This document shows, one piece after another, positions 19,707 to 53,427 of a stretch of 64,000 bases of DNA. Location of the stretch: the NCBI GenBank assembly GCA_963767735.1, contig CAVYES010000005.1:1-64000 (forward strand). Reading direction: 5' to 3'. Both the position numbers and the translations under genes were made by a program. The notes beneath the pieces are model-generated. The model was not told the origin of the DNA. It did no database searches and worked only from the letters and a program-made list of their open reading frames with translations. Source of the stretch: Candidatus Bathyarchaeota archaeon (lineage in GTDB: Archaea; Thermoproteota; Bathyarchaeia; Bathyarchaeales; Bathycorpusculaceae). Position 1 is the stretch's first letter, and the number at the start of each line of letters is the position of its first letter.

Positions 19707-19725
19707 GAAGGGATTCGAACCCCTG
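19707..19725 (-). repeat. att-like copy of tRNA-Ser T-arm
   Basis: GAAGGGATTCGAACCCCTG is identical to 21612-21630. Confidence 0.75.
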
Positions 19726-21602: not shown

Positions 21603-21726
21603 TGGCGCCGGGGAAGGGATTCGAACCCCTGCGAGCACGAAGCCCACCAGCTGTCTTGCCTTTCGGTCTTAGCCCTCTTTTCTACAATTCTCGAGGCTGG
21701 CGCGTTAACCACTCCGCCACCCCGGC
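21603..21726 (-). tRNA. tRNA-Ser(CGA) with ~38-nt canonical intron (21652-21689), CCA encoded
   Basis: GCCGGGGTGGCGGAGTGGTTAACGCGCCAGCCT-CGA-G^...AGCTGG, long variable arm, GGTTCGAATCC...GCCA. Confidence 0.9.
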
Positions 21727-26250: not shown

Positions 26251-27162
26251 ATGATGACTACTGTAACTTTAAAAATATCCAGAGATAGTTTCCGTATGGC
26301 AAAAACCTCAGATAATGCTGCTGATGATCCTCATTTCTTTGCATCTAACGTGCATACATGCTCTATTTCTGATTCTGTGGCTCTCAGAATTCATTCGGAT
26401 ACAAAACCGCTAAACTTGAAAATAGCAAACTTGCAGAAAGGTATGATTTTTATGTTTAATGGGGCTGAGGTAGTTGGGGAAGGAACAGGATTTGGAGTAC
26501 CTATTGGAAAATACTCTAATGAAGTATTTTTTTCAGGCTCATCATTCCTCCAAGTTCAAAAGCAGGATAATTTTGTCATTATTCGCAAAGAGTTTTTAAT
26601 GGATCTGATAGAACGGAGCAAATTCCGAAATCTCAAACTTGAAAACGTGAAGTTGCGTGGGATAATGGACTCCTTTTCTTTGCTTTCCCAGAAACATAAG
26701 CGTCTTGCCCAATTCATTCTTCTAGCAAAAGGGTTACTTTTTAAGTTTGGAGTAAAATCGACTTTTGTTAGAACAATGCCAAAAGGTAAAGTTATTGTCA
26801 CTTATACCGTAGATCGAAACCGAATTTTAGTGAAATTGAGCTTTAATGAGTTGGACCGGACTAATCTTCAGAAGGTCTTTATGTTAAACGAGCAAGGAGC
26901 GCATTTCTTCAGGAAATACTCTGATTCAGAAGGGCTTAACTTGTTCGATGAGGAAATAGGCGTTTGGGATGATGTGATGGCCCAATCGGCAAAAATAGCG
27001 GATTCACAAGACAGAATTGGCTTCAGTCTAAAGAATGTTGAAGGAACTGTGTTGCGGCGAGGAAGGGAAGTGATCAAAGGTCATCTAGATTGGATTGGTC
27101 TAGATTATGAACTTAATCCCGAAGATGACCAGTTCGAGTATGAAATTGAAATTTTCGGGTGA
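26251..27162 (+). CDS. Hypothetical protein coupled to a radical SAM gene
   Basis: 303-aa ORF with GTGA overlap to the next gene. Confidence 0.6.
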   Translation: MMTTVTLKISRDSFRMAKTSDNAADDPHFFASNVHTCSISDSVALRIHSDTKPLNLKIANLQKGMIFMFNGAEVVGEGTGFGVPIGKYSNEVFFSGSSFLQVQKQDNFVIIRKEFLMDLIERSKFRNLKLENVKLRGIMDSFSLLSQKHKRLAQFILLAKGLLFKFGVKSTFVRTMPKGKVIVTYTVDRNRILVKLSFNELDRTNLQKVFMLNEQGAHFFRKYSDSEGLNLFDEEIGVWDDVMAQSAKIADSQDRIGFSLKNVEGTVLRRGREVIKGHLDWIGLDYELNPEDDQFEYEIEIFG

Positions 27163-28533
27163 CCTTGATGAAAACCGTGACTCTGGTCTATCCGTACTTC
27201 AAACCTCGTGTTGACACATCAATCTTCAGATTTCCGCCTTTAGGCTTGGGGTATATCGCAGCATATCTAAAACAACAGGGTATTTCTGTTGGAATTGTAG
27301 ATTGCACTTTTCTCGACCAGAAACAGGCTCTCAAAAAAATTGTCGACTCGAAACCACAGATAATTGGAATCCAGTCAATGTATTCGATGAGAAACAAATC
27401 TCTTGAACTAGCCCGCCTACTAAGAGACCATTGTGAATTACTTGTTGCGGGAGGCGCGCTTCCTACGACGCAACCTGAGATGTTTCTCGGGGACTTCGAT
27501 GTTGCTGTTGTTGGAGAAGGAGAACTAACGATGCTTGAGCTCGTCAATCAGTTCGTAAATGGTGGTGATTTGTCTCAAGTAAAAGGTATAGCGTATAAAG
27601 ATAAAGGCACTGGTCAAGTTAAGCGGACCTCTCCGCGGGGGTTGGTAGAGGACTTAGATAGGTTGCCTCCCCCTTCAAGAGATTTATTTGATAATTATTC
27701 TTACAAAAAGTATTACTTTAGAAGATTTGGCTACAAAACTTCAGCTATTATGACTTCCAGGGGTTGTCCCTTTGCATGTGATTTCTGTAGCAGACCGGTC
27801 TTTGGTGATGAATTTAGATCAAGATCAGCATCGAAGGTAGCTGATGAGATAGAAGAGGTAATTTCTTTGGGCTATAATAGAATATGGTTTGCTGATGATT
27901 GTTTTACCTTGAATCGCAAGCGGCTTATTGAAGTTTGTGATGAAATCATCAAACGCGGATTGAAAATTGACTGGGAATGCCTATCAAGGGTTGACACTTT
28001 GGATTCGGATATAGCTGACAAAATGAAACAAGCCGGATGCGTAAGGATGTTTTTTGGAATGGAATCCGGAAATGATTCAATCCTTAAAATCATGAATAAG
28101 CAGGTAACAACAAAGCAAGCATATATTGCCACCCAATTATGCAAGAAAAAAGGCATCAGAGCGGGGAGCATTCTTTATCCCGGGGTACCCTGGCGAAAAC
28201 GACAAAACCATCCTAGATACCGTAAAGTTCGCGTCTTCGCTTCCATTAGATTATCTTTCTTTTACGCTACCTTATCCTATTCCGGGAACACCCTTATTTG
28301 AAAGACTAAGTGGCGAACTGTTGTCCGAGGAATGGGAAGAACCCAAGAATATTCAGATGATAAAGCATAAGTTGCTTTTCGATTCACAGGTAAGTGAGTT
28401 CAAGTTGAAGTTTGCAGTTATTAAGGGTATGATCCAGTTTTACAGTCGAAAATATATGGGTGAAAAAGGCTACGCGCTTATCGGCGGACCAATTGAAGCG
28501 GTAACGGACGCAGTCTATGGACTAATAACATAA
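27159..28533 (+). pseudogene. B12-binding radical SAM protein, split by a +1 G in GGGG at 28163-28166 (possible sequencing error)
   Basis: PPLGLGYIAAYL, GEGE, SRGCPFACDFC and FGMESG; continues as GAFFI.GYPGE in 28126..28533. Confidence 0.8.
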
Positions 28534-28678
28534 TTAATTTCTTTCCTGCTTCAATTTGGAATCAAAAGAGTTACGTATTTCCCGATAAAAACGCAAACAA
28601 CCTGCTACAAAAATCTTATTTTTTAGCGTTCGCCCAGAAGGATTCAATCCCCCGAGACACGTGCGCTCTAACCTCTTA

Positions 28679-28821
28679 GAAGCAGTGCTTATCTCAAGAA
28701 TATTGAATATTCCGCCGCCGGTTCCGTTGCCGCAGATTCCTGAAGCTGGAAAACAGCCAAGCTCTAAGCCTGAAGGAAGAGACTACAGCGCGTAGCTTAA
28801 ACCGCATATAGGAAAAAAGCT
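28679..28821 (+). repeat. 143-bp inverted duplicate of 39091-39233 (3' end and downstream sequence of gene 39117..39545)
   Basis: Read base by base as an exact reverse complement. Confidence 0.9.
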
Positions 28822-29198
28822 GAAGTTTCATCTAACGATTCTTGTATTGTCACCTTTTGCTTGGCTTTGTCGAATGTGTGGTACCATTCTTATCAATTAT
28901 TGACAGACCAAAAACATTTGAAGTCATCGAGAAAAAGTAACATCTCAACAAAAGATAATTGTTGCCGCGATTCTGCAAGAAATTCTGTAATATGAGTGCG
29001 ATTACCCGTGGGGCGGCAAAATTTTCGTTTTATCGGTTCGCAACAAATCTCGTTTACTGTTCTTTCCTGCTTTCTTGAGAGAGATTATTTCGATGGCTTT
29101 TTGCGCTGGAAAAAAGAGGGAGCGCATCTTAGAAGTCCCTATTTTTCTCAGCATATCTTTCAGTTTTTTTAGCGCGCCGCCCACAAAAACAGTTTTTG

Positions 29199-30551: not shown

Positions 30552-32010
30552 CTATAGATATTCGCGTCTTTTTCTCAAGGCTGCCGTAGCCAATCTTAAC
30601 TCGACAGGGTAACGAAAATACCTGTGTCTCCACCTGTATTTGGCAATTTTGTTTAACAAGCCGTACCCTAGTCTGTAAGAAAGTCGGCGCTCACCAACTC
30701 GTGTGCGAGGATAAAACGCGTAAATCGAAACGGTTGAAACGTCCTGAAGCTTATCGACATATTGCTTAGAATGCCATGGCGGCCTGAAATGAAAAACCTC
30801 AGCTTTCCCCCACTCTTCAAAAGATTGAGGAAGTTTAAATTCTGGACCCAACGAATCCAAGATGGGGCTGGGAAAAGGCGTGAACAAAAAGATCCCGTAG
30901 TGTTGGGTCTTCGGGTTAACTTCACATCCTGTCCATTAAGTCACATGTCTTCATGAGATCATCTTCGGTTTCCGTGGGAAGCCCACTTAGCCAAGACACA
31001 AACGGTTCAATAGAAGGAGCCCACTTTCTCAGGTTTTCTACAGAACTAATCATTTGCTCCGTCGTGATATCCTTATTTATGAGTGAAAGCAACCGTTCAG
31101 ATCCAGTTTCTCCTCCAAAATCAATCTCGGTACAACCTGATTTCGCCAGCAGCTCAATGAAACCCTGGTGGTATTCTGACATATAATCAAATCTGCAGTT
31201 CGCTCGCCAACTTACTTTGATTTTTCGATTTAATATTTCCTGACAAATGTCCATTACTCTTCTTTGATCAACGAAGAAATTATCGTCAATTGGATCAATA
31301 ATTCTGATGTGCGGAAATTTTTCAAGAACATATTCTATTTCATCAACGACTCGACGGGCACTTTTTCCACGCCAAGTCTGCCTGTTATAAACGATATTAT
31401 AACAAAATCCACACTTATGAGGACAACCCCTGCTCGTCTGAATATGAAACCGGCCCGACTTTAACGTAGGATATTTGTCCAAAGACAGCAACTCAAAAGG
31501 AAGCTCAATAGGAATCTCGTCCAAGTCCATTAGTTCACGGTTAGGTGTACTTCTGATTGTTCCAGCCGACTTGAAAGTAATCCCTTTGATCCCATCAAGT
31601 GGCTCGCCTGCCGAAAATTTGTCAGCCAACTCCAAAAGTGTTCGTTCTCCTTCGCCCCTCACTACAATGTCAACAAACTCGCTTGCCACAGTCTGTTCCG
31701 GCAAAAGAGTAGGATGCACCCCGCCCCACACAAGAGGAATCGAAGAATCTAAAATCCTAACCCTCCGCGCAAACTCTAGTCCATATCGTATTTGAGACCC
31801 ATGAATCGTGCTTATGCCGACAAAAAGCGGCTTTCCAATTTCAAAATCGGTAAAACTTTCTAATCGCATGTCTAGAATTTTAACTGAATACCCGCCTTTA
31901 ATCAGAAAACTCGCCAGATGCAACAAAGAAAGTGGAACCTGCGGGTTAGGAGAATTGTGCTTTCCTGGAAAGACTAATAACACTTCCAGTGTCTTGTCTT
32001 TTCTTAACAA
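30552..32010 (-). pseudogene. B12-binding radical SAM protein, split near 30922 by an apparent 2-nt deletion
   Basis: WGGVHPT and SRGCPHKCGFC; the tail (FTPFPSP...RYPVEL, 30552..30887) aligns with paralog 37587.. Confidence 0.8.
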
Positions 32011-32262
32011 AAGTCTCTCTTCAGTTCAGGCTTTTCTAAATGCAAAATCCAGTTGTGACTTCTTAAGCTTATGTGACTGCCGCATGACAGCAACAAAAAC
32101 TGAAATACGTTAAGTTTCACTCGGATTAGAAAAGCACTTCAATATATTATATTTATTTTTTGAAAGATTACTTTTGGCCATATACGAACTCCAAACCAAA
32201 AAGCAACAAAACAATGATCTGAAAGGAACTTTTAGCCATTCGACACAGCAAAAAGTAGGAAA

Positions 32263-32277
32263 GGTTAAAATTTAATC
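32263..32277 (+). repeat. Left target-site duplication (15 bp)
   Basis: GGTTAAAATTTAATC, identical to 37558-37572. Confidence 0.85.
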
Positions 32278-32296
32278 CCCAAACCCAAACCCAAAC
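32278..32296 (+). repeat. Left terminal inverted repeat (CCCAAA)3C
   Basis: CCCAAACCCAAACCCAAAC is the reverse complement of 37539-37557. Confidence 0.85.
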
Positions 32297-32488
32297 GACG
32301 ACGGAAACGACGAAAAAACCTGAAAAAAACGGCTAAACGATGAAAAAACTACGAAACGACGGTTTATTTTTATAATTATTGTTGTTTACACTATAATTTT
32401 TAATATTATTTACAATTTTATCTTAAATGTTGTGTAAAGTTGAATGTTAAAGATTAATTAAATTCAGTATTAACATTTTATAATTTAA

Positions 32489-32731
32489 TTATTGTTTGAC
32501 CTTCACAGAAGATAAAGCACCATAAACACTACAAGTAACACCAATCAACGAAAAAACAAGTCCAATTATAGCAACAATAGAATATTCAACTATTGTATTA
32601 TAAATACCAATCCAATAAGCAGTTTTAGGATAAGGGTCACCAAGCAACTGTAAATCATGAAACCCAATCATCAACATAACCAAACCTAACACCGTAAGAA
32701 CAATGCCAATAATAATGATTCCAATTTTCAT
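32489..32731 (-). CDS. Small two-TM membrane protein (element cargo)
   Basis: 80 aa with two hydrophobic helices. Confidence 0.55.
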   Translation of the reverse strand: MKIGIIIIGIVLTVLGLVMLMIGFHDLQLLGDPYPKTAYWIGIYNTIVEYSIVAIIGLVFSLIGVTCSVYGALSSVKVKQ

Positions 32732-32870
32732 TTTTTTACCATCTTAGGACATTTTTTTCAGCACTACATTACAATTATTAATAACGATAAAATCCAAATT
32801 AATATTTTATGAATATGAAATTAATATTAACTTAGATTCACTAATGATTACATTAAAAATTGGGAAAAGA

Positions 32871-33905
32871 TTAAATTGTTGGAAGTCTCGGAATCCAACT
32901 TGGTTTTTCATGCCTAAGATACTTCGCTAAAAGTAACGCTTCTTCACTAATTAATGTCTCAAACTCTTGTCTTTTCCCGACTCTGATTCTTGGTATTTCC
33001 ACATAAGAATTAAACAAACTATCTAATTCAACCATGAAACTTTTAGTTTCATCATCGTTAAGATATTCTCTTTTCCCAATTTTTCCACGTGACATTAACT
33101 CACTTTTTGTTATGAAATCCTTTTTGCTCAATTCCTTACAGAATCCGATAATAAAATCATCAATGATGTATCTGTAAATCTCCATGAAATCACATATTAA
33201 ACTTGGCTTACCGAATTGTTCACTATGCAAAAAACCAAGATAAGGCTCTAATTTCGCATTAACAAGTGCTTTATGAACTTTCCAGTTAAGCATCTCATAA
33301 CCTAAATTGAAAAGATTATTTATTCCATCATAAGCCTTGAAAGTTCTTCTACATTCAGGTCTTATCCTTTCAGGTATTAAATCAAACACTTGTTTAAAAT
33401 AAAATTCTGCACAATGAGATTCATAAGTGGAAATAATAACTCTAACTTTAAGTAAATTGTCACTATCAATATTCTTAATCCTTGAAATCATGGCAATATC
33501 AAACGGTTTTAAACTGTATTTGCTCAATACCTTATTTTGACCTTCTATTTTACTTAAAACAATTATTTTTGCAATCTCTAAAGCTCTACCATCTTTTAAC
33601 GCTTCATACTGTTGTATCCTTGTATCTACATGGTCATCATTATCTAAACTTCTAAGCATCGCAACAGGTCTCCCTTTTTGCGTAATAATCAAAACATCAA
33701 TATCCCAAAAACCTAAAGATGCTAAAGCACCTGTAGAAACACAATTACCACTTTTTAGTACAACTTCACCAATTTCTTTTTCAAATAATGGATAACGTTT
33801 AACATTTCCAGTTCTATCTTTAACTATAAAACAGCCTTTTTCCATGCCTAAATAACTGCCTTGTTTATCAAGCGTTATTTTCAGAGTTTTAGAGCCTTTA
33901 ACCAT
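32871..33905 (-). CDS. cas1: Stand-alone Cas1 endonuclease/integrase (casposase-like, no C-terminal HTH)
   Basis: N-terminal beta domain (GSYLGMEKG, VSTGAL, GRP), R..QY, catalytic E162 (YES), NLGY, PYLGFLH227 and SL.CDFME242. Confidence 0.93.
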   Translation of the reverse strand: MVKGSKTLKITLDKQGSYLGMEKGCFIVKDRTGNVKRYPLFEKEIGEVVLKSGNCVSTGALASLGFWDIDVLIITQKGRPVAMLRSLDNDDHVDTRIQQYEALKDGRALEIAKIIVLSKIEGQNKVLSKYSLKPFDIAMISRIKNIDSDNLLKVRVIISTYESHCAEFYFKQVFDLIPERIRPECRRTFKAYDGINNLFNLGYEMLNWKVHKALVNAKLEPYLGFLHSEQFGKPSLICDFMEIYRYIIDDFIIGFCKELSKKDFITKSELMSRGKIGKREYLNDDETKSFMVELDSLFNSYVEIPRIRVGKRQEFETLISEEALLLAKYLRHEKPSWIPRLPTI

Positions 33906-34016
33906 TTTTAAACCTTCATTTCAAACTATTAATAATTATTAATAATAATTAATTAATGTTAAGGTAAAAAATATAAACATTTCACTCATTATTAATAAGT
34001 TTTAGTGACTGTTAAC

Positions 34017-34151
34017 ATGACAAAAAAACTTATTTTAGATATTGATAATGAAACTTGGAAAGAGGTTTTAAAGTACAAAATTGATAACGATTTAAAGAAC
34101 AATAATGAAACAGTAATTTTACTGATAAAAAAAGCATTATCTCTAAAATAA
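34017..34151 (+). CDS. Small RHH-like regulator divergent from cas1 (44 aa, not in ORF track)
   Basis: MTKKLILDIDNETWKEVLKYKIDNDLKNNNETVILLIKKALSLK. Confidence 0.6.
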   Translation: MTKKLILDIDNETWKEVLKYKIDNDLKNNNETVILLIKKALSLK

Positions 34152-34658
34152 ACTTGAATCTTCACAAAATAATTATTAGAAAAAAAGTGGAGGAAAGTAA
34201 TTTAGATTTTACTCTAAAACTACTTTTTACCTATGTATTTGACTTTGATTATTAGTGCTAATATTCCCATGCCTATGAAACATAAAGGCAATAATCCCCA
34301 AATAGTTATTACCGTTGCGTTCCAACCGCATATACAAACTCTTTATGTAAAAGTTTTTTGTATCGGTAGCATAGAAAATAGCGAACCCTATGATTCTGCA
34401 TAATTATCTAAAAATTTAGGTAACTATTCAGCAGCAAGCACTAATATGACAAAATCAACCAATCCCCTCACGGTCGATAAGACCATGATTTAGGTCGATG
34501 ATATCTGTCATGTTTTTTGTGTAACCCTCCCTAAGTCAACTTAGGGCTTGATTAGATATAAAAGATTTGCTATATTTTTGGTGTTTGATTCAAAATAAAC
34601 TTTTAAATTACTTTTTAGATAAATTTTTACTTGTTTTTTATCTTTAATATAATTATAT

Positions 34659-34820
34659 TTATTCTTTTATAGGCTCAAGAATTAACGTAAATTTTTGTTT
34701 TCCATCTAAAACAGCTTTCAATTCTTCCAAATTAGCAAGATAACGTTCATGCTTAACCATTACAGTTACTTTTTTACTATCTTTAGTTAAACTCAAATAT
34801 CCACAATCTTTCCAATTCAT
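34659..34820 (-). CDS. Small hypothetical protein (53 aa, not in ORF track)
   Basis: MNWKDCGYLSLTKDSKKVTVMVKHERYLANLEELKAVLDGKQKFTLILEPIKE; ATGA overlap with the upstream ORF and GAGGTGA SD. Confidence 0.55.
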   Translation of the reverse strand: MNWKDCGYLSLTKDSKKVTVMVKHERYLANLEELKAVLDGKQKFTLILEPIKE

Positions 34821-35503
34821 TGGCATTCAATCACCTCACTAACAGCTTTTACATTAGAATCAACAGATTTCTTAACAGAATCCTTAAGCGAATTCTTAAC
34901 AATATTCAAAATAATTCTTCTTGTTTCAAGTAATTCTTTTATTTGGTTGTTTTGACTACCATAACGAAAAACAATTTTGGGCGAAGGTTTATCAATTTTA
35001 GGGCTAAACCTTAATGTTGAGCTTTCCTTAATACACTGCATTAAAACCCATTTTTGTAAATCTATACTACTGCTTTCAAGTGCAATCCAATTTATTATAT
35101 GAACATTTTTAGTCCAGCTAACAGGTCTATCAAAAGCAACAAGATAATTCTTTTCAAAATATCTGTAACTAACTTTTCCTTTTTTCCCTTTTTCTTTAGC
35201 AATATGTTCTTTTCTACTTGATTCAAAAATAATAAATCCATTCAGATTAAACCAATTTAATGCTCGAAAAGCATAATATCTCACTTTATCAAGAGGCATC
35301 TTATCAAAATCAATTTGAACTATATTTTTACTCCAATTCCCAATAATTACAGATAAAATATCATCAGAAAAATCATTACCTAAAACACGTTTTGCAACTT
35401 GATATAATTCTTTTTCAGTGCCGAACGTTTGAATCCTTTTCTGTTTGCCATTAACAGAACCGTAAAAAGCAACTTGAACTTTTAGCTGTTTATTCTCGGT
35501 CGT
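34817..35503 (-). CDS. Putative AEP/primase-like protein; frame open 68 codons beyond the 35299 ATG
   Basis: The extension contains VQIDFD (hDxD); downstream motifs ESS...NYLVAFD and STLRFSPK; fold assignment is inference. Confidence 0.45.
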   Translation of the reverse strand, partial: TTENKQLKVQVAFYGSVNGKQKRIQTFGTEKELYQVAKRVLGNDFSDDILSVIIGNWSKNIVQIDFDKMPLDKVRYYAFRALNWFNLNGFIIFESSRKEHIAKEKGKKGKVSYRYFEKNYLVAFDRPVSWTKNVHIINWIALESSSIDLQKWVLMQCIKESSTLRFSPKIDKPSPKIVFRYGSQNNQIKELLETRRIILNIVKNSLKDSVKKSVDSNVKAVSEVIECQ

Positions 35504-35949
35504 TTATCCCACTCTTCTTTTGAAAGATATTTATCTGGATTAGAAAGTAACTTGCTTGCATCTATAGTTAAAAATTGAGATTTAGGTGAATAACCGCTTT
35601 TTGTTTTACCAAAATCAAATATTTTTTCTCTTATTACTTTATGTAAAGTTTTACCATCTATTGAAAATATATTAATTCTACTCGCATGACCGTTAACTAA
35701 TCCGCTAAATGAAACTACTTTTTCTCTCGGATGATAATATCTTCTATATTTTTTAGGTGTATATTTACTAACATTGGCTTGTGCAGGTCTATTTCTAAAT
35801 TCTCGTGTATAGTTAAGTATTATTTGTCTTCTTAATCCAATATGTTCGCTTCTAAGCTCTTTTTGAATCTGATTAGCACTATAACCTCTTGCATTAAGCT
35901 CTCTTATTCTATTAACTTGTTTAGATGAAACTCCAGATTTACGACTCAA
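35482..35949 (-). CDS. Basic HTH-like hypothetical protein
   Basis: IRELNARGYSANQIQKEL resembles an HTH; C-terminal domain is similar to the hidden N-terminus of the next ORF. Confidence 0.6.
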   Translation of the reverse strand: MSRKSGVSSKQVNRIRELNARGYSANQIQKELRSEHIGLRRQIILNYTREFRNRPAQANVSKYTPKKYRRYYHPREKVVSFSGLVNGHASRINIFSIDGKTLHKVIREKIFDFGKTKSGYSPKSQFLTIDASKLLSNPDKYLSKEEWDKRPRINS

Positions 35950-36374
35950 AAAGTTTCACCTTCTAAATTTAACCTTTTTTTCTCTTCTTCCGTTAATGGA
36001 GCTTTACGCTCAGATTCATCTAATCTTAACTGTAACTTTTTTTCTCTATCTATTTTATTCTCATAATTCTTAATGATTTTATGAAGTTGTGATAAATAAT
36101 AAGGAAAACTTTTAGATATTGTTATAATTTGAGTTTTATAATCAACAGTTATTAAACCTAAATTTTCAACATGACTTATTATTTCTGTTGTTTGGTTTTG
36201 GTGAGGAGCTTTAGGCATACCGCCCTCAGTGATAAACGCATTGTTAAAATCATTTATAGTTTTATTTTTACATGATTTAAGCATAAAATCCATAATTTTT
36301 AGGTTTTTAAGAAGTTTTTGTTTTGCCCAATATTCTTCTTGACTTTCAATCGGTTTTATACTTATATCTGTCAT
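35946..36374 (-). CDS. Hypothetical protein, possible winged helix
   Basis: ISHVENLGLITVD; overlapping start/stop with neighbours. Confidence 0.55.
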   Translation of the reverse strand: MTDISIKPIESQEEYWAKQKLLKNLKIMDFMLKSCKNKTINDFNNAFITEGGMPKAPHQNQTTEIISHVENLGLITVDYKTQIITISKSFPYYLSQLHKIIKNYENKIDREKKLQLRLDESERKAPLTEEEKKRLNLEGETF

Positions 36375-36526
36375 TTATACCGCTTAACCTTCTTTTTCCA
36401 GTTAAAATGAAATTCTCTTAAACTTGTTTTTTTATGTGAAGCTCTGGGTAAAAGTACACGTTCTTTCCAAAATTCTATTTTTACATCTAAAACGTTACCA
36501 TGACAGTCAACATGTAGTTTAGACAT
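36371..36526 (-). CDS. Small basic hypothetical protein (51 aa, not in ORF track)
   Basis: MSKLHVDCHGNVLDVKIEFWKERVLLPRASHKKTSLREFHFNWKKKVKRYK; TAATG and ATGA overlaps on either side. Confidence 0.55.
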   Translation of the reverse strand: MSKLHVDCHGNVLDVKIEFWKERVLLPRASHKKTSLREFHFNWKKKVKRYK

Positions 36527-36945
36527 TATTTTTCACCTTTAGAGCTTTCAGGGCTTTTTTTTATCTGATTAATCCAATTAGTTTTTAATTTTTCATTTTT
36601 CAACATACTTATTTTTTCAATTAATTCTGAATCTGATAATTTTTCATAATGATTTGACTTAATAAAATCAGTTAAATCTAAAGTAAAATCTTGCTCTTTT
36701 TCTATTTTCGGTTGTATTTGCGGTTTTTCTTCTTTAACTAAATTATCTGTAATTCCATTTTTTCTTTCGAATTTCAACATTTCTTTTGCAGTATTTAGAT
36801 AATCTACTCTTGTATCTTGGCAGAAACACATAGCAAGTTCAGTTAATACATCATTTTCAGATTCTCCATCTTTTAATTTTTTCATTACGGCTCTTATATT
36901 TACATCTCTTATTGTTGAGCCTGACCTTTTCTTAAATTCACTCAA
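36526..36945 (-). CDS. Hypothetical protein (element cargo)
   Basis: 139-aa ORF in the coupled operon. Confidence 0.55.
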   Translation of the reverse strand: MSEFKKRSGSTIRDVNIRAVMKKLKDGESENDVLTELAMCFCQDTRVDYLNTAKEMLKFERKNGITDNLVKEEKPQIQPKIEKEQDFTLDLTDFIKSNHYEKLSDSELIEKISMLKNEKLKTNWINQIKKSPESSKGEK

Positions 36946-36948
36946 AAT

Positions 36949-37131
36949 TTAAACCTCTTCTCTAATTTCTTTTTGACCTATATTTTGACTTGTATTTTTT
37001 TCTGTAATTGTAAAAGTATTTCCACAATTTCTACATCTAAAATTATTAAAATAAAATCTAAAATATGTTTGAGTTGAATTGAATTTTGGACATCTGTGAT
37101 TTTTTACTTTTGTTTTTTGCATAGACATCAA
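36949..37131 (-). CDS. Small zinc-ribbon-like protein
   Basis: CPKF...FRCRNCGNTF; the first CxxC is degenerate. Confidence 0.5.
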   Translation of the reverse strand: MMSMQKTKVKNHRCPKFNSTQTYFRFYFNNFRCRNCGNTFTITEKNTSQNIGQKEIREEV

Positions 37132-37320
37132 ACAAACAGTATGTTTGTATCAAATTTAAGTTCTTCGATTTAGTTTTTTATCAATTTTGAGTTAATAATC
37201 CAACCCATATAGCTTGAATGGATTAATAAATTTCTACCTCAAAAACGTTTCAAAATTTACAATATATTTAGGGCTAACTCAAACTTCAGAGCTAACTCCT
37301 AACTATTCTTTATTCAGCGA

Positions 37321-37460
37321 GCTAACTAACGAACGAGCGAGCTAACTAACGAACGAGCGAGCTAACTAACGAACGAGCGAGCTAACTAACGAACGAGCGA
37401 GCTAACTAACGAACGAGCGAGCTAACTAACGAACGAGCGAGCTAACTAACGAACGAGCGA
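37321..37460 (+). repeat. Seven perfect tandem copies of a 20-bp unit (no spacers)
   Basis: (GCTAACTAACGAACGAGCGA)7, with degenerate GCTAACT copies at ~37273 and ~37291. Confidence 0.95.
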
Positions 37461-37538
37461 GCGAGCGAATGCGTGGGAGAGAGGGATAAGGAGAGCTTGA
37501 GTTTGGGTTTGTGAGTAGGCGTAGGCGTGTGTGAGGAA

Positions 37539-37557
37539 GTTTGGGTTTGGGTTTGGG
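37539..37557 (+). repeat. Right terminal inverted repeat G(TTTGGG)3
   Basis: GTTTGGGTTTGGGTTTGGG. Confidence 0.85.
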
Positions 37558-37572
37558 GGTTAAAATTTAATC
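37558..37572 (+). repeat. Right target-site duplication (15 bp)
   Basis: GGTTAAAATTTAATC. Confidence 0.85.
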
Positions 37573-37586
37573 CTAATTAATTAGTA

Positions 37587-39218
37587 GTGAGGGTCTTTTT
37601 AGGAATGTTCAGTTCCCAGACAGGCATATCACATTTCTGCAACATATATTCAAGCAATAACAAGAAAGACGTTTTGCTTGTTTTCCCAGGAAAGTTCAAA
37701 GCGCCTGACCCGCTGTTTCCTCTTTCGCTTTTGTATTTAGCCGCTTCACTGCAGGAAGAAGGTTTTACGGTTCGCGTTCTTGATATGAGAATTGAAGATT
37801 ATCGCCACTTTGAAATTGGCAACCCCCTATTTGTGGGCATAAGCTGTATTACGGGTTTACAAATCAATTATGCCTTAGAATTTGCCCGTTATGTCAGAAT
37901 ACACGCTTCTTCGTCGCCCATTGTTTGGGGAGGAGTTCATCCGACATTGTTGCCTGAGCAAACAGCAAGCAATGACTATGTTGATATCGTTGTCCGAGGG
38001 GGAGGAGAATTGATAATCAAAGATATAGCAAACGCGCTTGCGTTAAATGAATCGTTAGATACTGTTGCTGGAATAACTTATAATTTAAACGGCTCAATCA
38101 AAAATAACCCAGATGGTAACATAAAAGATTTAGATGATCAACCAATAGCTTTGCCCTATGACCTGCTCCAAATGGATAAGTACCCATCGGTAAAATCAGG
38201 CCGGTTCCATATACAAACAAGCCGAGGATGCCCTCACAGATGTGGTTTCTGCTACAACATATATTTTAACAAGAACAAATGGAGAGCCAAAAGCTCCAAA
38301 CGCGTGGTCGACGAAATTGAGTACATATTGAAAAAATTTCCCCACGTTAAAATAATAGATCCAATGGATGATAACTTTTTTGTTGACAAAAAACGTGTTG
38401 AAGAAATATGCCGAGAAATTTTAGGTCGCAAACTTGTAATTCAATGGCGCGCTAATTGCCGATTCGATTACCTATCTACTTATGATAAAGATTTTCTAGA
38501 GCTTTTAGAGAAAGCTGGATGTGTTGAGTTGAATTTTGGGGGTGAGTCAGGTTCAGAGCGTTTGCAACAGCTTATATGCAAAGACGTTACAGCAAATCAA
38601 ATGTTGCAATCGGTTGCGAATCTCCGTCGCTGGGCACCTTCCATTGAGCCCTATGTCACATGGATGATTGGTCTCCCAGGCGAAACTGACGACGATTTGA
38701 ATCAAACTTTTGATTTAATGGACAAGATGTGTGAAGTAAATCCTAAGACGCAGCATTTAGAAATATTTGTTTACACTCCATTTCCAAGTCCATTTATGAA
38801 TTTTTTGCCAGCGAAGTATAAACCACCTCAATCGCTTGAAGAATGGGGCAGCATCAATGTCTTTCATTTCGATCCACCTTGGCATAGCAAAAAGCAAGTG
38901 GAAAAGTTGCATTCGATTTCAGCTGTTATACGTTATGGGTTTTACCCTCAATCAAGAATAAAAGAACGGGATGTCACTTACAAAATAGCTCATGACGTTA
39001 TGAATCGTATTGCGAAGTACAGATGGAAACGCAGGTACTTCGGCTTCCCAATTGAACTAAAAATCGCTGATTCCTTATCTATGAAATTCAAGCTTTTTTC
39101 CTATATGCGGTTTAAGCTACGCGCTGTAGTCTCTTCCTTCAGGCTTAGAGCTTGGCTGTTTTCCAGCTTCAGGAATCTGCGGCAACGGAACCGGCGGCGG
39201 AATATTCAATATTCTTGA
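37587..39218 (+). CDS. B12-binding radical SAM protein; C-terminal ~40 aa read antisense into the neighbouring gene
   Basis: PLSLLYLAA, WGGVHPT, SRGCPHRCGFC and GGESGS; close paralog of 30552..32010. Confidence 0.85.
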   Translation: MRVFLGMFSSQTGISHFCNIYSSNNKKDVLLVFPGKFKAPDPLFPLSLLYLAASLQEEGFTVRVLDMRIEDYRHFEIGNPLFVGISCITGLQINYALEFARYVRIHASSSPIVWGGVHPTLLPEQTASNDYVDIVVRGGGELIIKDIANALALNESLDTVAGITYNLNGSIKNNPDGNIKDLDDQPIALPYDLLQMDKYPSVKSGRFHIQTSRGCPHRCGFCYNIYFNKNKWRAKSSKRVVDEIEYILKKFPHVKIIDPMDDNFFVDKKRVEEICREILGRKLVIQWRANCRFDYLSTYDKDFLELLEKAGCVELNFGGESGSERLQQLICKDVTANQMLQSVANLRRWAPSIEPYVTWMIGLPGETDDDLNQTFDLMDKMCEVNPKTQHLEIFVYTPFPSPFMNFLPAKYKPPQSLEEWGSINVFHFDPPWHSKKQVEKLHSISAVIRYGFYPQSRIKERDVTYKIAHDVMNRIAKYRWKRRYFGFPIELKIADSLSMKFKLFSYMRFKLRAVVSSFRLRAWLFSSFRNLRQRNRRRNIQYS

Positions 39219-39545
39219 GATAAGCACTGCTTCAATGAATACGACGTTGGATACTGATTGAATAATTATTTGTGCCGGTGGCTTTTTTTGTTCATAGTCT
39301 TTGAGAGCTTTTTCAATTTCGTTTTTCTCGCCATTAACATAGGCGTTTCCTTTTATACTCATTTGAGCGATGGAAGGATTAAACGTGATTGACAGGACAA
39401 ATGGGACCTCCAAAGATTCATCCTGTTTCTTTTCCATACCAACAACGTTAATGTTAGTGTTTATTTGAATTGGGGGGATTGGCTTTCTTATATCCCAAAA
39501 GCGTTCAGCAGTAATGCTGGTAATTATGACGTTAACTCTGAGCAT
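39117..39545 (-). CDS. Conserved archaeal hypothetical protein
   Basis: Follows rps27ae; ends with a PPPVPLP motif. Confidence 0.65.
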   Translation of the reverse strand: MLRVNVIITSITAERFWDIRKPIPPIQINTNINVVGMEKKQDESLEVPFVLSITFNPSIAQMSIKGNAYVNGEKNEIEKALKDYEQKKPPAQIIIQSVSNVVFIEAVLISRILNIPPPVPLPQIPEAGKQPSSKPEGRDYSA

Positions 39546-52103: not shown

Positions 52104-52181
52104 TGGTGCTCCGGCCGGGATTTGGACCCGGGTCGCCGACTCGAAAGGCCAGTATACTTGACCGGACTATACTACCGGAGC
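52104..52181 (-). tRNA. tRNA-Glu(TTC), CCA encoded; T-loop reads GTCCAAAT
   Basis: GCTCCGGTAGTATAGTCCGGTCAAGTATACTGGCCT-TTC-GAGTCGGCGACCCGGGTCCAAATCCCGGCCGGAGCACCA. Confidence 0.9.
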
Positions 52182-53399: not shown

Positions 53400-53427
53400 A
53401 TACTTGACCGGACTATACTACCGGAGC
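53400..53427 (-). repeat. 28-bp duplicate of the tRNA-Glu 5' end
   Basis: ATACTTGACCGGACTATACTACCGGAGC is identical to 52154-52181. Confidence 0.85.

Follow-up and report, generated by a model that had tools for sequence, protein, structure and literature searches.

Casposons serve as the accepted model of how CRISPR spacer integration arose. To our knowledge, few of them have been studied, all with a family B DNA polymerase (PolB), and their targets, where known, lie at the 3′ ends of tRNA or EF-2 genes. The present report concerns a Cas1-carrying insert in a 64,000-nucleotide stretch of DNA, hereafter the window, from a Candidatus Bathyarchaeota archaeon (assembly GCA_963767735.1, contig CAVYES010000005.1, positions 1 to 64,000). 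Its host belongs to Bathyarchaeia, a major uncultured lineage of sediment and soil. We read this insert, with a probability of roughly 0.8, as one copy of a large casposon-like, site-specific DNA transposon family of Bathyarchaeia in which a gene for a protein resembling archaeo-eukaryotic primases (AEP) replaces PolB.

Several described systems come close to it; what is said of them here refers to excerpts of the papers cited. The 2014 definition of the casposon superfamily, as self-synthesizing Cas1 transposons, combines Cas1 with PolB, and an inactive 'Cas1-solo group 1' was described alongside (PMC4046053). The family 1 casposase of Ca. Nitrosopumilus koreensis has 347 residues and no domain of the helix-turn-helix (HTH) type, and it makes a 13-bp duplication at a sequence-specific site; the duplications measured for casposases are 13-15 bp long (PMC8464041). 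In Methanosarcina mazei, casposons form tandem arrays that re-use the duplicated site (PMC9939771). More recently, six Cas1-solo sequences adjoining subtype I-A Cas1 were described from hot-spring metagenomes as 'family 5 casposases' (2022). These are archaeal, mostly without PolB, without HTH, and share over 50% identity among themselves; some of the contigs carry inverted repeats, and the elements were interpreted as non-self-replicative (PMC9755687). Asgard Cas1 homologues 'possibly associated with novel MGE' (mobile genetic elements) have also been mentioned (PMC8730458). Finally, CRISPR-associated primase-polymerases (CAPPs) are AEP-superfamily proteins linked to Cas1 in CRISPR-Cas operons with Cas1-Cas2 (PMC8211822). 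Among the matches listed in searches of the casposon literature on Bathyarchaeia or Bathyarchaeota, Asgard archaea and primases, and of that from 2022 onward, there was no description of the present family.

The insert and its relatives

The insert occupies positions 32278-37557 (5,280 bp, read directly from the window sequence) and is flanked by 15-bp direct repeats, two identical copies of GGTTAAAATTTAATC. Next to these lie perfect 19-bp inverted ends, CCCAAACCCAAACCCAAAC on the left, with the structure (CCCAAA)3C, and its exact reverse complement on the right. The border between duplication and inverted end can be shifted by a few bases, so that 16 + 18, 15 + 19 or 13 + 20 bp can be read; in the 16-bp reading of the direct repeat, the overlapping 15-mers at 32263 and 32264 both recur. 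These repeats and ends, with the 13-bp/20-bp alternative, had been reported in a preliminary description made from the letters of the window, and the sequence confirms them. A repeat search of the window returned longer arms, 32 nt with 94% complementarity, since the duplicated site comes close to being a palindrome. In the 64 kb there are just 5 distinct pairs of exact 15-mers separated by more than 200 nt, and only the GGTTAAAATTTAATC pair adjoins a perfect inverted repeat; no second duplication outside the 15-mers was visible in the window sequence. The GC content is 0.258-0.300 in the ten 500-nt intervals of 32000-36999 and 0.358-0.468 in the flanks. All credible open reading frames (ORFs) of the insert lie on the minus strand, the longest being cas1, which encodes the sole recombinase detected. 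Because the ends and the duplication are perfect and cas1 is intact, this copy fits a recent insertion, as had been proposed. Its features are the following.

32263-32277: left copy of the target-site duplication, GGTTAAAATTTAATC (readable as 13-16 bp); the same class of site is found at 28 related elements
32278-32296, plus strand: left terminal inverted repeat with the structure (CCCAAA)3C; related elements end in (CCCAAA)n, (CCCAA)n or (CCAA)n
32489-32731, minus strand: predicted membrane protein of 80 aa, with no family match, not conserved among related elements
32871-33905, minus strand: cas1, 344 aa, predicted integrase; E162, H227, D239 and E242 present, no extra C-terminal domain
33906-34658: about 750 bp upstream of cas1 without a convincing ORF; no Rfam match at gathering score
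34659-34826, minus strand: 55-aa ORF of family F7 (4 of 29 elements)
34817-35512, minus strand: AEP-like (primase-polymerase-like) gene with a stop at codon 3
35482-35949, minus strand: 155-aa protein of family F5 (5 of 29 elements); N-terminal three-helix bundle, weakly HTH-like
35946-36374, minus strand: 142-aa ORF, no family match
36371-36526, minus strand: 51-aa ORF, no family match
36526-36945, minus strand: 139-aa protein of family F1 (13 of 29 elements, found with both end types)
36949-37131, minus strand: ORF of 60 aa, weak zinc-ribbon match (Zn_ribbon_8 at E 0.0069, short of the cut-off)
37316-37462: subterminal tandem array, 20-bp unit, 7.3 copies, 100% matches
37539-37557, minus strand: right terminal inverted repeat, reading G(TTTGGG)3 on the plus strand
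37558-37572: right copy of the target-site duplication, GGTTAAAATTTAATC

Relatives of the window Cas1 are numerous. A word-indexed protein search gave 1,887 proteins at E <= 0.001 among 5,268 candidates, and the closest matches, among those listed, are at least 120 Cas1 proteins of 332-368 aa that are 62-99% identical to it. Among 50%-identity representatives, which were searched exhaustively, 5,366 Cas1-like proteins reached E <= 0.001, and many of the best 150 of these are fragments. When one genome per species was scanned, 147 candidate stretches were obtained, 117 of which encode a relative, and 78 distinct loci were kept. Bathyarchaeota or Bathyarchaeia stand in the titles of 74 of the 78; the remaining four are titled Aenigmatarchaeota, Levybacteria, Acidobacteriota and 'uncultured archaeon'. 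Two or three loci are held by each of 17 assemblies. The metagenome-assembled genomes (MAGs) of several loci bear the isolate names DRTY, JZ or QZM, presumably hot-spring sites. The two Cas1 genes in MAGs with bacterial titles (L042, Levybacteria, 56% identity; L056, Acidobacteriota, 44% identity) could reflect mis-binning or real transfer.

In 28 of the 78 loci, as in the window, cas1 lies within a segment that has inverted ends (at least 12 of 14 positions matched) and a flanking direct repeat of 13-16 bp (at least 13 of 15 matched). Searches starting from the inverted repeats and searches starting from the site gave agreeing bounds around cas1. The 28 complete loci are a lower bound, because many of the others are short contigs or are truncated at a contig end. 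The elements, counted with that of the window, are 2.8-13.5 kb long, and their ends are of two types: short C/A tandem repeats of the forms (CCCAAA)n, (CCCAA)n or (CCAA)n, and CT-rich runs, up to perfect inverted repeats of 100-150 nt. In both types the 3′ end of each strand is purine-rich. The preliminary description had suggested looking at homologous cas1 loci for similar ends and duplications, and the shared architecture found there upholds its view of a mobile element that carries Cas1 and is delimited by inverted ends and a duplicated target. The window element is a member of a large and widespread Bathyarchaeial family of apparently Cas1-mobilised elements.

Cas1 and the duplicated site

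The 29 elements yielded 276 ORFs with a length of 50 aa or more, which fall into 168 clusters, and Cas1 proved to be the only gene common to all elements (29/29). The 344-aa protein of the window matches the Pfam family Cas_Cas1 at E 1.9e-45 and the model TIGR00287 over residues 10-335. Residues E162, H227, D239 and E242 are invariant in a family alignment of 30 sequences and coincide with the H/D/E motif of a solved Cas1. Both parts of the earlier statement on this protein, that its catalytic residues are intact and that a C-terminal HTH is lacking, are borne out by the alignment and by the span of the model.

Among solved structures, the best match is 4n06, the CRISPR Cas1 of Archaeoglobus, which we take to be of subtype I-A (64.6 bits with the protein, 98.7 bits with the family profile). 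The type I-D Cas1 7cr6 is second (56.7 and 77 bits) and the M. mazei casposase 6opm third (51.2 and 75.2 bits). Of the NCBIfam models, the generic Cas1 model alone passes its cut-off for the window protein, and no CRISPR-subtype model reaches cut-off for this protein or for its 17 nearest full-length representatives. A tblastn search against plasmids returned only CRISPR-linked Cas1, at most 27% identical, and six of these served as outgroup in a quick maximum-likelihood tree of 73 rows, together with 50 family members and the 17 representatives, none of the rows being a casposase. The family forms a clade with support 99, split from the plasmid Cas1 with support 100, and the window protein groups with those of L001 and L003 at support 95. 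A single Cas1 clade (support 100, 13 rows) holds every element that has CT-rich ends together with an AEP-like gene of type F2. Therefore, Cas1 evolves together with the element ends and the primase-like gene.

The names and scores of these proteins bear on another explanation, that cas1 is a remnant or domesticated part of a CRISPR adaptation module and that the repeats arose by chance or through an unrelated insertion. The automatic names of the homologues, among the matches listed, are all 'CRISPR-associated Cas1', and the family profile does score 4n06 above 6opm. However, neither cas2 nor cas4 nor any other cas gene was found in the scanned ORFs, the NCBIfam subtype models fail for the window protein and the 17 representatives alike, and no CRISPR-like array was found by a k-mer search of the 78 loci and the window; one flag among these 79 sequences was discounted because it lies inside a large repeat protein of L015. 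Moreover, the architecture of ends and duplication recurs 29 times, which already contradicts this explanation, and we regard it as scarcely tenable. The Pfam scans behind these negatives covered 163 distinct ORFs of the loci and 10 non-Cas1 ORFs of the window, together 173 of the 241 non-Cas1 ORFs of the elements, and among these there was no match to a family B polymerase, to Cas2 or Cas4, or to a recombinase of the tyrosine, serine or DDE type. The claim that PolB, cas2 and a CRISPR array are missing thus stands for the scanned ORFs, the 78 loci and the window, where the longest ORF of the insert is Cas1 itself.

The preliminary description took the 15-bp repeats for a plain target-site duplication and left the site unremarked. 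It is in fact no random site: across the 29 elements the duplicated sequence is conserved as a near-palindromic 15-mer, approximately GAYTAAAWTTTAAYC or the related asymmetric GGGTAAAGTTTTATC, with the core TAAA-N-TTTA. As judged by comparison of the loci, this 15-mer is a target chosen by sequence and not a part of the element, because the host flanks vary, sister elements hold the site in opposite orientations, and its two copies agree better in direct than in inverted reading. First, the flanks are diverse, including genes for seryl-tRNA synthetase, eRF1, H+-pyrophosphatase, ribose-5-phosphate isomerase, TFIIB and radical SAM proteins, and the sites face gene ends about as frequently as gene starts. 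Even the sisters L031 and L037 sit between different housekeeping genes, the former beside proteasome alpha and RNA polymerase subunit genes and the latter beside genes for a luciferase-like oxidoreductase and a nitroreductase. Second, L007 and L019, whose Cas1 proteins are sisters (support 95) and whose gene orders agree, hold the same asymmetric 15-mer in opposite orientations. Third, the mean direct identity of the two copies is 14.5/15 versus 9.8/15 for the inverted reading, and direct exceeds inverted in 29/29 elements, a comparison biased by the selection, which demanded at least 13/15 direct matches. The idea that the inverted ends simply extend outward into the 15-mer was rejected in view of the direct identity and the oppositely oriented sisters. 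A general promoter with a TFIIB recognition element and TATA box (BRE/TATA) was likewise rejected: hits with up to 2 mismatches in the window number 4 versus 5.8 expected by chance, and the sites in the loci face gene ends as frequently as starts.

A conserved flanking repeat could also be the att core of an unrecognised site-specific recombinase hidden among the unannotated ORFs, with Cas1 as cargo or in some other role. Conservation of the repeat is what att cores would show, and most element ORFs belong to no family. On the other hand, the asymmetric site is entered in either orientation, which a directional att core would forbid, and perfect inverted ends with a 13-16-bp duplication are the signature of staggered attack by a transposase or Cas1, not of att recombination. 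No gene other than Cas1 occurs in all 29 elements, and the Cas1 tree follows the type of element end. The duplication lengths also match the 13-15 bp reported for casposases (PMC8464041). Recombination at an att core is, on this evidence, very unlikely.

Good target sites are, as far as these sequences go, scarce and mostly occupied. The degenerate site pattern occurs with 0 mismatches in the window only at the two flanking copies. Scored with a weight matrix derived from these 29 elements' sites (13.3 bits), the window has 0 further sites at the median that real sites reach and about 4 at their lower quartile. Of 40 exact matches to the palindromic pattern within the 78 loci, 34 adjoin an element-like end, as do 19 of the 26 matches to the asymmetric 15-mer, with ends recognised by a crude composition rule; the remaining 13 exact-motif sites are also visibly beside element ends.

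Numerous copies of the site are bordered by element ends to the left and right, for example at L003, L006, L007, L013, L014, L016 and L038. When ends are recognised by the composition rule, 30 of 997 core-motif sites are two-sided junctions of this kind, versus 0.19% of other positions, and they are present in 23 of the 78 loci. To judge from these junctions, the duplicated site is evidently re-used, giving site-insert-site arrays in which neighbouring elements share one copy. Units of 0.4-1.3 kb without cas1 but with the same site and element-like ends were also seen (L016, 12120-14575; L006, 12017-16626). They are probably non-autonomous derivatives mobilised in trans, comparable to miniature inverted-repeat transposable elements (MITE-like).

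The AEP-like partner and other genes

After Cas1, the most frequent gene families are F1 (13 of the 29 elements), F2 (12), F3 (11), F4 (10), F5 (5), F6 (5) and F7 (4); the window carries F1, F3, F5 and F7. Profile hidden Markov models (HMMs) of F3 and F2 find an ORF in 26 of the 29 elements, three of these matches being weak (E 7e-6 to 5e-4), and the ORF is absent from L047, L050 and L057. F2, which belongs to elements with CT-rich ends, aligns with F3 in a profile-profile comparison by hhalign (84% probability, E 7e-6, 103 columns). The preliminary description had called the element 'minimal' and 'Cas1-solo', which does not hold for the family: Cas1 travels with this AEP-like gene in 26 of 29 elements and with other conserved small genes.

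The AEP motif I is D-x-D and motif II is s-x-H. The F3 alignment contains D-x-D (as LDFD) in all 9 aligned sequences that cover the region, a stretch SS...H in which the column of the histidine after the SS pair varies, and a conserved block TLR-x-PK-x-KP-x-P-[RK]-[IV]-[VI]-[FY]. The AEP-like Pfam family PF24387 matches 3 of 9 F3 members, at best with E 2.6e-4, and the window's protein is unmatched. A protein atlas points to an AEP-like cluster with a score of 0.93, at a query recognition value below the level where such scores are strong. The AlphaFold2 (AF2) model of the protein has a pLDDT of 73.5 and a pTM of 0.69. Its best fold matches in PDB are the herpes simplex virus (HSV) primase, African swine fever virus (ASFV) PrimPol, RepB' and human PrimPol (E 0.017-0.13, probability 0.57-0.85). 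The best viral ones are D5-type primases of giant viruses and small proteins of archaeal filamentous viruses (E from 2.5e-3, probability 0.96-0.99). These matches are nearly all AEP primases, all with E above 0.001, and the query-normalised TM-scores are 0.33-0.47. Although the lines are singly not significant, they agree, and the partner protein of about 230 aa probably has an AEP-like fold. It would then presumably be a primase or primase-polymerase that copies the element. The earlier statement that the element has no DNA polymerase is therefore correct as to PolB, which was not matched, but may be wrong in function because of the AEP-like partner.

In the window, the F3 ORF was first called at 34817-35299. 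Upstream of the ATG at 35299 the frame stays open to 35503, with no ATG, GTG or TTG in between. A full-length gene would begin with GTG at 35512-35510, followed by GGA and an in-frame TAA at 35506-35504 (codon 3), after which the frame is open for 228 codons to the stop at 34817-34819. Related proteins have 228-232 aa, are 80-86% identical over the whole 227 residues, and begin M/V-G-(Q/Y/H)-T-T, with Gln, Tyr or His where the window has the stop. Because the other 228 codons are intact, the stop is either a recent break or a sequencing error.

The 155-aa F5 protein was modelled with a pLDDT of 75.6 and a pTM of 0.43, with a three-helix bundle at its N-terminus. The fold search gave no significant match for it; the best local ones were to homeodomain, GerE and small-terminase HTH folds (E >= 0.68), which is only a suggestion that the modelled protein is HTH-like. 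By eye, a beta-hairpin motif 'V-x-F-Y-G ... K-R-I' can be seen both in the C-terminal half of this protein (35482-35949) and in the N-terminal approximately 40 residues of the AEP-like protein (35400-35500), a comparison that also drew on the F3 proteins of L001 and L019. The shared motif suggests a duplicated small domain. The other ORFs of the window insert gave no useful match in Pfam, NCBIfam or PHROGs.

The mechanism that we propose is based on analogy with casposases and Cas1-Cas2. Cas1 would link the element's two G-rich 3′ ends to both strands of an AT-rich, near-palindromic site of about 15 bp. The two attacks would lie 13-16 bp apart, and gap repair would then duplicate the site. As the comparison of loci shows, the duplicated site stays a good target where later elements insert, producing the site-insert-site tandem arrays. 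The conserved AEP-like protein, instead of a family B polymerase, would copy the element, accompanied by small conserved proteins, one of them possibly an HTH protein. The window's copy, with its AEP-like gene stopped, may depend on other copies.

The primase-like gene and the ends also fit a different emphasis, in which the element is mainly an episomal replicon, such as a small linear plasmid or virus-like entity with telomere-like ends and its own primase, and Cas1 serves only for reversible integration. The short tandem repeats or CT-rich runs at the ends are as found on linear replicons, the AEP-like gene is conserved, subterminal tandem repeats are present, and one larger element encodes a ParB-HTH protein. 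However, no capsid, packaging or partition genes were seen among the scanned ORFs of the elements of 2.8-6 kb, and arrays and multiple chromosomal copies per genome suit transposition equally. We consider a mainly episomal life rather unlikely, although it and the transposon reading are mutually compatible.

Several observations weigh against the casposon-like transposon with an AEP-like gene. Neither the 78 loci nor the window showed a perfect site that is unoccupied, and no empty site was found for the window insert, whose flanks match none of the 78 loci. Since perfect-consensus sites are rare, the presence of near-identical 15-mers at different loci and in different genomes is partly unexplained. 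Some of the 'host flanks' may be cargo of neighbouring elements in arrays. Integration by the element's own Cas1 without Cas2 is proposed from the behaviour of casposases. The assignment to AEP is of moderate strength, given sub-threshold sequence matches, fold E-values above 0.001 and a motif-II histidine that is not fixed to one column. Finally, with its AEP-like gene stopped at codon 3, the window's copy may be non-autonomous and need the primase of other copies.

The largest elements, L028, L038 and L054, contain a different module, consisting of F6 (about 300 aa, with a weak AAA-lid signal), F9 and F10, and may represent a third subtype of the family. F10 is weakly AEP-like (E 7e-6 to 5e-4). 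The cargo found in the elements includes a ThaI restriction enzyme with its methylase, Mrr, a TIR-domain protein and a Schlafen/AlbA_2 protein, as well as MazE-type antitoxins, Fic, ParB-HTH, MarR/ArsR regulators and a surface-type NosD/Big_5 protein of 1,533 aa. Judged by these annotations, the cargo is variable and often of defence type. The defence-type genes lie at L040 6465-8141 (ThaI and an N6/N4 methylase), L028 7928-8713 (Mrr-type nuclease), L054 2201-2857 (TIR-domain protein) and L003 6734-7894 (Schlafen/AlbA_2 protein).

Comparison with described systems and the host DNA

The present elements share with casposons of families 1-4 a Cas1-family integrase without linked CRISPR or other cas genes, terminal inverted repeats, a target-site duplication of 13-15 bp, a sequence-specific target and tandem arrays. 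As in family 1, the Cas1 has about 345 aa and no C-terminal HTH. Unlike families 1-4, the present family has no family B polymerase, its conserved partner being the AEP-like protein of about 230 aa. Its target is a free-standing near-palindromic 15-mer in varied intergenic places, its ends can be short tandem repeats, and its hosts are Bathyarchaeia. Set against the 2014 definition, the Cas1 catalytic set, the inverted ends with a duplication and the absence of CRISPR linkage were all found, whereas a family B polymerase was not. In other words, the element would work like a casposon but falls outside the classical definition on the point of PolB.

The closest description in print is that of family 5. 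Compared by description only, the present Cas1 is likewise archaeal, without neighbouring cas genes, PolB or a C-terminal HTH, and its best solved match, the Archaeoglobus Cas1, recalls the position of family 5 beside subtype I-A Cas1. Inverted repeats, identities above 50% within the group and, for several MAGs, presumed hot-spring origins are further points in common. In contrast to family 5 as far as it is described in the excerpted text, the present elements show a target-site duplication, a conserved target, a partner gene and arrays (PMC9755687). There is a real chance that the two families overlap. The novelty suggested earlier as possible for a distinct PolB-less family is thereby reduced, given that PolB-less casposases had already been published; what goes beyond the excerpted account of them is the fuller architecture (PMC9755687). 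The 'aloposons' of Heimdallarchaeia were considered as Cas1 elements and set aside, being giant-gene transposons at tRNA sites for which Cas1 is unmentioned.

There are parallels with CRISPR adaptation as well. Both have a Cas1 enzyme, in both a short, partly palindromic sequence is duplicated, presumably in the present elements too by staggered attack at its two ends, and repeated insertion leads to repeat-insert-repeat arrays. In contrast to Cas1-Cas2 systems, the present elements have no Cas2, leader or short spacers, the inserts are whole elements of 3-13 kb with defined ends, and the repeat measures 15 bp against 25-40 bp for a CRISPR repeat. Neither of the hallmarks of an adaptation module, an adjacent cas2 and a CRISPR array, was found. 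CAPPs resemble the present arrangement in that a protein of the AEP type, here AEP-like by fold and motif, is genetically linked to Cas1. As CAPPs are described in the excerpted text, the difference is that the link seen here lies inside a transposon without CRISPR parts.

It is possible, though we hold it only tentatively, that these elements are an undescribed casposon lineage in which PolB was exchanged for a minimal AEP primase-polymerase, with a Cas1 that recognises and duplicates a palindrome and builds repeat-insert-repeat arrays. A large, apparently active family with Cas1 and a primase-like gene would broaden the known ways in which Cas1 elements are copied. If its Cas1 is nearer to CRISPR Cas1 (subtype I-A) than to the classical casposases, no living transposon would come closer as a model of the step by which the repeat-duplicating CRISPR adaptation machinery arose from a Cas1 element, and the known Cas1-AEP link of CRISPR systems would, if the lineage is real, be tied back to a mobile element. 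A Cas1 that picks and duplicates a short palindrome would behave much like Cas1-Cas2 at the CRISPR repeat. In practical terms, the family offers a compact predicted integrase (344 aa, no Cas2) with a defined 15-bp target, and it may serve as a marker of recent gene flow and as a carrier of defence genes in Bathyarchaeia.

The host DNA around the insert has some features of its own. To the left of the insert, a B12-binding radical SAM gene (30552-32010, minus strand) is split: 30922-32010 encodes 362 aa, and the C-terminal part, in another frame at 30552-30887, matches the C-terminus of an intact paralogue at 37587-39218. On this sequence the left gene is likely a frameshifted pseudogene. A third B12/radical SAM paralogue (27159-28533, plus strand) also appears split, into overlapping ORFs at 27159-28301 and 28126-28533 in two frames. 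A 158-nt inverted repeat (28674-28831 and 39081-39238, 97% complementary, arms 10.2 kb apart) brackets radical SAM paralogues and the insert, its right arm covering the intact radical SAM gene at the 3′ end. This repeat appears to be the relic of an inverted duplication of host DNA, outside the element.

Two further direct repeats of the window are associated with tRNA genes. A 19-bp repeat (19707-19725 and 21613-21631) matches the 3′ part of a tRNA gene at 21606-21726, which was called by Rfam and not by ARAGORN and whose length of 121 nt implies an intron. These copies look like att-type repeats around an integrated remnant of about 1.9 kb. A 28-bp repeat (52154-52181 and 53400-53427) has one copy within a tRNA-Glu gene (52104-52181, minus strand) and could represent either a piece of a tRNA or an att site belonging to another element.

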